Below are positions 60,801 to 64,000 of a stretch of DNA of 64,000 bases, one piece after another. The stretch lies in the NCBI RefSeq assembly GCF_044647545.1, contig NZ_CP172818.1; one strand, written 5' to 3'. The position numbers are program-made. Each line of letters starts with the position of its first letter. Within the stretch, counting starts at the first letter, position 1. This stretch comes from Escherichia coli. GTDB taxonomy: Bacteria; Pseudomonadota; Gammaproteobacteria; Enterobacterales; Enterobacteriaceae.

Positions 60801-63800
60801 GATTTTGTGATCATGGCGCGCACCGATGCTCTGGCGGTAGAGGGGCTGGATGCGGCGATCGAGCGTGCGCAGGCCTATGTTGAAGCGGGTGCCGAGATGT
60901 TGTTCCCGGAGGCGATTACCGAACTCGCCATGTACCGCCAGTTTGCCGATGCGGTGCAGGTGCCGATCCTCGCCAATATTACCGAATTTGGCGCAACACC
61001 GCTGTTTACTACCGATGAATTACGCAGTGCCCATGTTGCAATGGCGCTGTACCCGCTTTCAGCGTTTCGCGCCATGAACCGCGCCGCCGAACATGTCTAC
61101 AACGTCCTGCGTCAGGAAGGCACGCAGAAAAGCGTCATCGACACCATGCAAACCCGCAACGAGCTGTACGAAAGCATCAATTACTACCAGTACGAAGAGA
61201 AGCTCGACGACCTGTTTGCCCGTAGCCAGGCGAACCCCCCCCCCCCCCCCCACAACGAAAAATATCTCGACCCTACAAAAAAAAAAATGACGAGGACAAT
61301 ATGAGCGACACAACGATCCTGCAAAACAGTACCCATGTCATTAAACCGAAAAAATCGGTAGCACTTTCTGGCGTTCCGGCGGGCAATACGGCGCTCTGCA
61401 CCGTGGGTAAAAGTGGCAATGACTTGCATTACCGTGGTTACGATATTCTTGATCTGGCGGAACATTGCGAATTTGAAGAAGTGGCGCATCTGCTGATCCA
61501 CGGCAAACTGCCGACCCGTGACGAACTCGCCGCCTACAAAACGAAACTGAAAGCCCTGCGCGGTTTACCGGCTAACGTGCGTACCGTGCTGGAAGCCTTA
61601 CCGGCGGCGTCGCACCCGATGGATGTTATGCGCACCGGCGTTTCCGCGCTCGGCTGCACGCTGCCAGAAAAAGAGGGGCATACCGTCTCTGGCGCGCGGG
61701 ATATTGCCGACAAACTGCTGGCGTCACTTAGCTCGATTCTTCTCTACTGGTATCACTACAGCCACAACGGCGAACGCATTCAGCCGGAAACCGATGACGA
61801 CTCCATCGGCGGTCACTTCCTGCATCTGCTGCATGGCGAAAAGCCGTCGCAAAGCTGGGAAAAGGCGATGGAGATCCGCTGGTGCTGTACGCCGAACACG
61901 AGTTTAACGCCTCCACCTTTACCAGCCGGGTGATCCGGCGGGCACCGGCTCTGATATGTATTCCGCGATTATTGGCGCGATTGGTGCACTGCGCGGCTGA
62001 AGCACGGCGGGGCGAATGAAGTGTCGCTGGAGATCCAGCAACGCGACGAAACGCCGGACGAAGCCGAAGCCGATATCCGCAAGCGGGTGGAAAACAAAGA
62101 AGTGGTCATTGGTTTTGGTCATCCGGTTTATACCATCGCCGACCCGCGTCATCAGGTGATCAAACGTGTGGCGAAGCAGCTCTCGCAGAAGGCGGCTCGC
62201 TGAAGATGTACAACATCGCCGATCGCCTGGAAACGGTGATGTGGGAGAGCAAAAGATGTTCCCCAATCTCGACTGGTTCTCCGCTGTTTCCTACAACATC
62301 AGGGGCTTTCCCACCGAGACGTTCACCCCACTGTTTGTTATCGCCCGCGTCACCGGCTGGGCGGCGCACATTATCGAACAACGTCAGGACAACAAAATTA
62401 TCCGTCCTTCCGCCAATTATGTTGGACCGGAAGCACGCCCGTTTGTCGCGCTGGATAAGCGCCAGTAAACCTCTACGAATAACAATAAGGAAACGTACCC
62501 AATGTCAGCTCAAATCAACAACATCCGCCCGGAATTTGATCGTGAAATCGTTGATATCGTCGATTACGTCATGAACTACGAAATCAGCTCCAAAGCAGCC
62601 TACGACACCGCCCATTACTGCCTGCTCGACACGCTCGGCTGCGGTCTTGAAGCTCTCGAATACCCGGCCTGTAAAAAACTGCTGGGGCCAATTGTCCCCG
62701 GCACCGTCGTCCCCAACGGCGCGCGCGTCCCCGGAACTCAGTTCCAGCTCGACCCCGTCCAGGCGGCATTTAACATCGGCGCGATGATCCGCTGGCTCGA
62801 TTTCAACGATACCTGGCTGGCGGCGGAGTGGGGCCATCCTTCCGACAACCTCGGCGGCATTCTGGTACGGCGGACTGGCTTTCGCGCAACGCGGTCGCCA
62901 GCGGCAAAGCGCCGTTGACCATGAAACAGGTGCTGACCGCAATGATCAAAGCCCATGAAATTCAGGGCTGCATCGCGCTGGAAAACTCCTTTAACCGCGT
63001 CGGCCTCGACCACGTTCTGTTAGTGAAAGTGGCTTCCACCGCCGTGGTCGCCGAAATGCTCGGCCTGACCCGCGAGGAAATTCTCAACGCCGTTTCGCTG
63101 GCGTGGGTGGACGGTCAGCCGCTGCGCACCTATCGCCATGCGCCGTAACACCGGCACGCGTAAATCCTGGGCGGCGGGCGATGCCACTTCCCGCGCGGTA
63201 CGTCTGGCACTGACGGCGAAAACGGGCGAAATGGGTTACCCGTCAGCCCTGACTGCGCCGGTGTGGGGCTTCTACGACGTCTCCTTTAAAGGTGAGTCGT
63301 TCCGCTTCCAGCGCCCGTACGGTTCCTACGTTATGGAAAATGTGCTGTTCAAAATCTCCTTCCCGGCGGAGTTCCACTCCCAGACGGCAGTTGAAGCAGC
63401 GATGACGCTCTATGAACAGATGCAGGCAGCAGGCAAAACGGCGGCGGATATCGAAAAAGTGACCATTCGCACCCACGAAGCCTGTATTCGCATCATCGAC
63501 AAAAAAGGACCGCTCAATAACCCGGCAGACCGCGATCACTGCATTCAGTACATGGTGGCGATCCCGCTGCTGTTCGGGCGCTTAACGGCGGCAGATTACG
63601 AGGACAACGTTGCGCAAGATAAACGCATCGACGCCCTGCGCGAGAAGATCAATTGCTTTGAAGATCCGGCATTTACCGCTGACTACCACGACCCGGAAAA
63701 ACGCGCCATCGCCAATGCCATTACCCTTGAGTTCACCGACGGACGCGATTTGAAGAAGTGGTGGTGGAGTACCCCATTGGTCATGCTCGCCGCCGTCAGG

Positions 63801-64000
63801 ATGGTATTCCGAAACTGGTCGATAAATTCAAAATCAATCTCGCGCGCCAGTTCCCGACTCGCCAACAGCAGCGCATTCTGGAGGTTTCTCTCGACAGAGC
63901 TCGCCTGGAACAGATGCCGGTCAATGAGTATCTCGACCTGTACGTCATTTAAGTAAACGGCGGTAAGGCGTAAGTCAACAGGAGACCATTATGTTTTAGC

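Follow-up and report, generated by a model that had tools for sequence, protein, structure and literature searches.

Frameshifted prpC and prpD genes in an Escherichia coli assembly probably reflect sequence or assembly error

The prpBCDE genes encode the 2-methylcitrate cycle for propionate catabolism, and PrpR activates their sigma-54 promoter on 2-methylcitrate (PMC4987338, PMC5690661). In this set PrpC is the 2-methylcitrate synthase, according to the K-12 annotation. In host-restricted enterobacteria such as Shigella, genes decay into pseudogenes usually through one or a few lesions that are shared by a clade, with flanking sequence that is similarly diverged. Gene-fragmenting indels are also a documented product of error-prone assemblies (PMC12007338).

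We have analysed a window, a 64,000-nt stretch of the E. coli contig NZ_CP172818.1, in which a sequence-only reading had found multiple frameshifts in prpC and prpD together with an intact prpR, an intact promoter and a mostly intact prpB, and had preferred a data-quality problem, shared with a block of yah genes, to a genuine loss of the 2-methylcitrate cycle. The prp region was compared with five natural alleles (K-12, EcPF15, 210205630, 2012C-4502, and TKEC21-59), EcPF15 being among the full-length matches that tie for best. Judged from these comparisons, the disruption of prpC and prpD is almost certainly not a real biological feature.

Reading frames across the prp operon

In a base-level alignment to K-12 MG1655 and EcPF15, the kind of check against reference prp genes that the sequence-only reading had proposed, five frameshifting indels lie in prpC (61301-62468) and three in prpD (62502-63952). 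A per-gene count of frameshifting gap runs agrees with these numbers for both genes, and tblastn with the K-12 proteins spreads the segments of PrpC over all three frames and reads PrpD in frames 3, 2, 3, 2; the multiple frameshifts are thus borne out. Two details were less accurate. The N-terminal part of PrpC is indeed intact, but for ~190 codons rather than the 200 claimed, since the first unique change falls in codon 191; and the C-terminus of PrpD, said to be readable only in a third frame, is not, as only two frames are used and the last 69 residues share the frame of the second segment. The 5′ part of prpC is otherwise clean, with zero differences from EcPF15 across 61285-61870. At the far end of the window, 2 bp are missing directly 3′ of the prpE ATG (63991-63993), which shifts the frame at codon 2.

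The locus takes up the last 6 kb of the window, and its upstream part proved largely as had been described. Window positions 58000-60976 show zero differences from K-12, and prpR is identical to its K-12 counterpart at every nucleotide. The promoter, TGGCACACCCCTTGCT, is likewise intact in a region identical to K-12; it precedes the prpB ATG by 46 bp and is the sole zero-mismatch match to TGGCAC-N5-TTGCW within the whole window. Most of prpB is intact as well: 887 of its 891 nt are free of indels, tblastn finds PrpB residues 1-294 in one frame at 99.7%, and the haplotype changes from K-12-type to EcPF15-type after 60976. Its stop codon, however, has been lost to a 17-nt run of C (C17) that is missing from all five reference strains, and the open reading frame then runs to 61304, for 318 aa instead of 296. 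What we found in place of uninterrupted PrpB, PrpC, and PrpD reading frames is a replaced stop codon in the first gene and, in the other two, the five and three frameshifts. An exact-product look-up returned no record for either the 318-aa extended PrpB or the 210-aa truncated PrpC. K-12 has an array of REP-type repeats (~400 bp) between prpB and prpC that the window lacks, a natural polymorphism common to EcPF15 and 210205630. As a side observation, C17 in place of ATAAAAC is atypical for any one sequencing platform.

Table 1. Features of the prp region and of the second degraded block, in window coordinates
Feature	Position	Strand	Observation
Second degraded block (yahD, yahE, fdrA, yahG, yahI, yahJ, yahL, yahM)	46950..57330		
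prpR, sigma-54-dependent activator	58523..60109	-	intact; 1587/1587 nt identical to K-12 prpR
sigma-54 -24/-12 promoter of prpBCDE, TGGCACACCCCTTGCT	60286..60301	+	intact; perfect match, region identical to K-12
prpB coding body	60348..61234	+	no indel, no window-unique variant
C17 homopolymer	61235..61251	+	replaces last prpB codon, TAA stop and following bases
A11 homopolymer, 8 extra A	61277..61287	+	just upstream of prpC ribosome-binding region
prpC 5′ part, codons 1-190	61301..61870	+	exact copy of natural allele
prpC 3′ part	61871..62468	+	5 frameshifting indels and 11 window-unique substitutions
prpC indels	61876; 61935-61937; 61994; 62187; 62250		-1; +2; -1; -1; -1
prpD	62502..63952	+	3 frameshifting indels and 6 window-unique substitutions
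prpD indels	62865; 63146; 63742		-1; +1; -1
prpD-prpE spacer and prpE start	63974..64000	+	1-bp deletion at 63974; one window-unique substitution; 2-bp deletion 63991-63993

Window-unique changes in the prp and yah genes

Wherever the five reference alleles are naturally polymorphic, the window carries a known allele: its haplotype is EcPF15-type from 60977 to ~62434, and its combination in prpD is close to the 210205630 allele. We also considered prpD as a consensus of two strains, mixing K-12-type and EcPF15-type bases site by site, as every natural polymorphic site there matches one or the other; yet the natural 210205630 allele alternates in much the same way, differing from the window at only 8 natural sites. 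Beside this natural variation stand 28 window-unique variants in 61871-63999 (18 substitutions, 8 deletions, and 2 insertions; 1.32%), and all of the indels are absent from the five reference alleles. The preceding 1470 bp (887 bp of prpB plus prpC 61288-61870) hold none, and if the rate were uniform, all 28 events would be confined to the distal 2129 bp with a probability of 4e-7. The unique changes set in at 61871, in the middle of prpC, where there is no gene or operon boundary. In prpC and prpD together, 15 of the unique substitutions are nonsynonymous and 2 synonymous, as against 4 and 82, respectively, for natural polymorphism among the four references used in that comparison (Fisher's exact test, p = 1e-12). 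Substitutions cluster beside indels at 61871-61876, 61935-61937, 61994-61998, and 62865-62866, and at 62434-62435 two adjacent bases are swapped (GACC to GCAC); both the swap and the clusters have the look of miscalls. A mutator spectrum was rejected, as both transitions and transversions occur among the unique substitutions and no one signature stands out.

Among 5,426 complete E. coli genomes, more than 5,200 contain the prp region at 95-99% identity and ~200 are without a match; the best identity in this collection is 97.0% for 3′ prpC (61860-62480) and 98.9% for prpD. The window-specific 37-mer AAAGGCGATGGAGATCCGCTGGTGCTGTACGCCGAAC, which spans the first prpC frameshift, had no exact match in genome or metagenome contigs.

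The claim that the yah genes show the same pattern holds. The second degraded block (Table 1), whose best identity in the E. coli collection is 98.1%, has 41 frameshifting gap runs over its eight genes, and relative to three references it contains 96 window-unique substitutions, 32 deletions, and 13 insertions (1.36%), though a portion of the substitutions, chiefly at 52-54 kb, may represent natural alleles that the three references do not include. The rate is thus 1.36% in the yah block versus 1.32% in prpC and prpD, with about two substitutions per indel in both and with deletions in excess of insertions in both (32:13 for yah, 8:2 for prp). An error model of homopolymer miscalls from a single platform fits in part: runs of at least 2 bases account for no more than about half of the prp indels and for roughly 14 of the 20 single-base deletions in yah genes. 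The genes yahH and yahK, which form islands inside the block, and yahN, yahO, and prpR show 100% identity to K-12. From paoD to yahC (8.3-46.7 kb), 33 of the 34 aligned genes are free of frameshifts, so that the lesions in prpC and prpD far exceed what chance would give; ykgL, the lone frameshifted gene upstream of 46.9 kb, is also frameshifted in the natural strain WP4.

Patchwork structure of the window

Positions 1-13379, which include argF, CP4-6 prophage remnants, and paoABCD, match K-12 save for 30 differences, all of them in one IS1 element at 1190-1930. The sequence then follows WP4-S18-ESBL-09, its closest sequenced relative, with 100.000% identity over 13368-24346 and 99.983% over 29162-46748, amounting to 3 differing positions in 28.6 kb. 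The first K-12 mismatch, at 13380, is only 12 bp past the start of the WP4 homology at 13368, and beyond this switch WP4 carries a different island. The homology stops at 46748, at an IS1 element that in WP4 directly adjoins lacZ, that strain having an IS1-associated deletion from yahD through lacY, with the whole prp operon included. About 200-300 bp past this end lie the first window-unique error (46933) and the first frameshift (47037). The switches fall together with structural differences between the K-12 and WP4 lineages. The middle of fdeC (26460-28225) is scrambled into A/C-rich, low-complexity sequence with 71-88% collinear identity to the real gene, many gaps, and homopolymers of C10, A10, A27, and A11; long homopolymers without counterpart in the reference strains cluster in this degraded stretch and at the prpB-prpC junction. 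Viewed as a whole, the window is composed of base-perfect segments of at least three lineages in K-12 gene order, alternating with degraded stretches, and its quality breaks down wherever the WP4-like lineage, the dominant one, lacks sequence or has another structure.

Explanations and comparison with known systems

The frameshifts in prpC and prpD are very probably sequence or assembly errors and not mutations of a living strain. We favour errors over pseudogenes because the variants are unique to the window and absent from related genomes, because their onset lies within a gene, at codon 191, and they are blind to gene boundaries and to coding constraint (15:2 against 4:82), because the same error profile recurs in the unrelated genes of the yah block, and because the neighbouring sequence is base-perfect; the data-quality problem preferred by the sequence-only reading finds support on the same grounds. 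One or two changes could be real mutations among the errors. The case for error is built on comparison with other alleles and genomes. Degraded stretches would carry ~1.3% random, deletion-biased errors, with 61871-64000 (3′ prpC to the prpE start) falling inside one such stretch and yahD-yahM inside another. Sharp-edged blocks, long homopolymers, and the scrambled fdeC point to a patchwork origin rather than to uniformly noisy data. Such a patchwork may have arisen from reads that were unpolished or of low coverage, from a mixed sample, or from a K-12-guided reconstruction; the pattern suggests reconstruction on a K-12 scaffold or a mixed sample, with fill-in from low-coverage or unpolished data. 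The source organism, if single, most likely either has a normal prpRBCDE locus whose prpC allele resembles that of EcPF15 or, like WP4-S18-ESBL-09, has no such locus.

The errors may have a different origin, in a computational or corrupted sequence that would be no direct read-out of an organism (a forced K-12-scaffold consensus, or a sequence imputed or generated by a model); we regard this version of the artefact explanation as possible but doubtful. Segments of K-12, WP4 type, and EcPF15 type stand verbatim side by side, homopolymers and A/C-rich filler occur exactly where strains differ structurally (by presence or absence of REP elements between prpB and prpC, and by an IS3 or a full-length gene in fdeC), and searches for the exact 37-mer and the exact PrpB and PrpC products found the sequence in no collection. 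Single-base deletions nevertheless show some enrichment in short homopolymers, a trait of real read errors, and the switch from K-12 to WP4 falls exactly at a homology boundary, as expected from read mapping. Genuine pseudogenisation, by which PrpC and the dehydratase would have been lost to frameshifts in a decay too recent to have reached prpR, the promoter, and prpB, is a far less credible account. The frameshifts are present in the sequence, and the operon is dispensable in nature, WP4-S18-ESBL-09 having lost yahD-lacY and ~200 of the 5,426 genomes having no match; but for 8 frameshifts and 17 mostly nonsynonymous unique substitutions to build up within 2.1 kb, neutral decay would have had to go on for long, whereas some 28 kb elsewhere in the window match a present-day isolate at 99.98-100% identity. 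Once the gene was inactivated, the initial 570 bp of prpC would be equally unconstrained, yet they are without a unique change; the lesions are common to no other genome in the collection, and eight unrelated yah genes are similarly damaged while the genes between them are perfect.

Decay of the whole unit with matching divergence of the flanks is thus not what is seen, there being 0 unique changes in prpB and 5′ prpC and 28 in the next 2.1 kb. Unique, clustered lesions, a clean 5′ prpC, and near-perfect flanks do not bear out the inactivation of the 2-methylcitrate cycle that had been raised, and a Shigella-like or host-restricted decay was ruled out by the perfect flanks, the window-unique lesions, and the clean 5′ prpC. 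Were prpC truly broken, the preserved PrpR would be left without its signal; a regulator preserved in that state adds no support for a functional reading. We see only a slim chance that some of the lesions are real, in a natural E. coli that is losing yahD-yahM and prpCDE through a local, indel-rich burst of mutation and has kept prpR and the promoter. Expression through programmed ribosomal frameshifts or transcriptional slippage has a negligible probability, as nothing speaks for it save the frameshifts themselves: the eight shifts are of mixed sign (-1, +2, +1) with no common slippery motif, the ten indel contexts likewise share none, no shift is conserved among the >5,200 E. coli genomes with the locus, and the same lesions occur in unrelated neighbouring genes.

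If sequence or assembly error is the cause, as we hold very probable, annotation of this sequence at face value would introduce false calls of pseudogenes and of metabolic loss, for the 2-methylcitrate cycle and the yah cluster, into comparative analyses. Findings from 26.4-28.3 kb, 46.9-57.3 kb, and 61.2-64.0 kb should be treated as unreliable. Were the lesions true, their significance would be modest, loss of the prp operon having already been seen in nature, e.g. in the IS1-associated deletion of WP4-S18-ESBL-09.

Compared with the prp locus of E. coli and Salmonella, the window has the same gene order, with prpR divergent and then prpB-prpC-prpD-prpE, as well as a sigma-54 promoter, an intact prpR, a prpR-prpB intergenic region identical to K-12, and DNA that is 96-99% identical to natural prpC and prpD alleles; it differs in that prpC and prpD are not single open reading frames, the prpB stop codon is missing, and prpE is shifted at codon 2. 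With Shigella-type decay it shares a dispensable catabolic operon broken by frameshifts, but here the eight lesions are window-unique and clustered, and the flanks are perfect. Error-prone assemblies (PMC12007338) offer the same picture of single-base indels, mostly deletions, that split conserved genes, are unique to one assembly and disappear when it is compared with close references; what sets the window apart from them is the presence of sharp-edged error blocks beside base-perfect sequence, of long artificial homopolymers, and of a scrambled fdeC.

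Identity switches along the window

The sequence looks like a patchwork laid out in K-12 (MG1655) gene order rather than a single natural haplotype. The two segments that open it (see the table) match different strains perfectly or nearly so, the second matching WP4-S18-ESBL-09 (WP4), the closest sequenced relative, and identity switches from K-12 to WP4 no more than 12 bp from the start of WP4 homology. Two WP4 segments, of 7.1 kb and 0.6 kb, are missing at window 24346 and 29162; the larger encodes an oxidoreductase, a LysR-type regulator and an aldo/keto reductase, and at its site the window has the K-12 arrangement, yet the flanks are WP4-identical. 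Beyond yagU, WP4 has a different island.

An alternation is also found in prpD (window 62440-63900), where K-12-type alleles and alleles of the type found in the natural strain EcPF15 take turns at natural polymorphic sites; strain 210205630, which ties with one other for the best natural prpD match, has a different allele at 8 such sites. This alternation could be that of an unsampled natural recombinant or the product of a two-strain consensus.

Features of the window and of the WP4 locus (window coordinates unless stated)
Feature	Position	Description
K-12-identical segment	1-13379	100% identity; argF, IS1, CP4-6 remnants, paoABCD
IS1 copy	1171-1939	Contains all 30 K-12 differences of the first 13 kb; flanks base-perfect K-12
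WP4-identical segment	13368-46748	100% / 99.98% identity to WP4-S18-ESBL-09
ykgL	22652-22877	Two frameshifting gaps relative to K-12; surrounding stretch 100% identical to WP4
Degraded fdeC (eaeH) middle	26460-28225	~1.8 kb of A/C-rich low-complexity sequence in place of the middle of the gene
yah block	46950-57330	41 frameshifting indels in total across yahD, yahE, fdrA, yahG, yahI, yahJ, yahL and yahM
IS1 adjoining yahC in WP4	21986-22731 of the WP4 locus (NZ_AP022098.1)	Matches window 46748; lacZ directly after IS1

Stretches of doubtful quality

The poorest-quality part of the window is the middle of fdeC, which contains the homopolymers C10, A10, A27 and A11 and aligns collinearly to the full-length WP4 gene (about 3.0 kb) at just 71-88% identity with numerous gaps; in appearance it is unlike native E. 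coli DNA. The yah block has the same error profile as prpC and prpD, and within it yahH and yahK match K-12 at 100% identity. In the yahH region (window 51440-51799), self-offset BLAST hits reveal direct repeats in tandem, with a ~93-bp period, that K-12 has too. Near the window start, the confinement of differences to IS1 between perfect K-12 flanks, together with 97.3% identity to one WP4 IS1 copy, fits a collapse at this site of reads that came from other copies of IS1.

Natural variants and a natural prp deletion

The ykgL frameshifts are a natural variant and no error, because they lie in WP4-identical sequence and the WP4 gene is itself annotated as a frameshifted pseudogene. Four tandem REP-type repeats (~400 bp) fill the prpB-prpC gap of the K-12 locus (L001 4740-5178), and are missing from the window (61235-61300), EcPF15 and 210205630, so that their presence or absence is a natural polymorphism. 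Both artificial homopolymers, C17 and A11, are located precisely at this variable junction.

In WP4, IS1 lies beside yahC and leads directly into lacZ, so the strain has a natural deletion of yahD-yahO, prpRBCDE and onward up to lacY. The closest natural relative provides a clean, real instance of prp operon loss.
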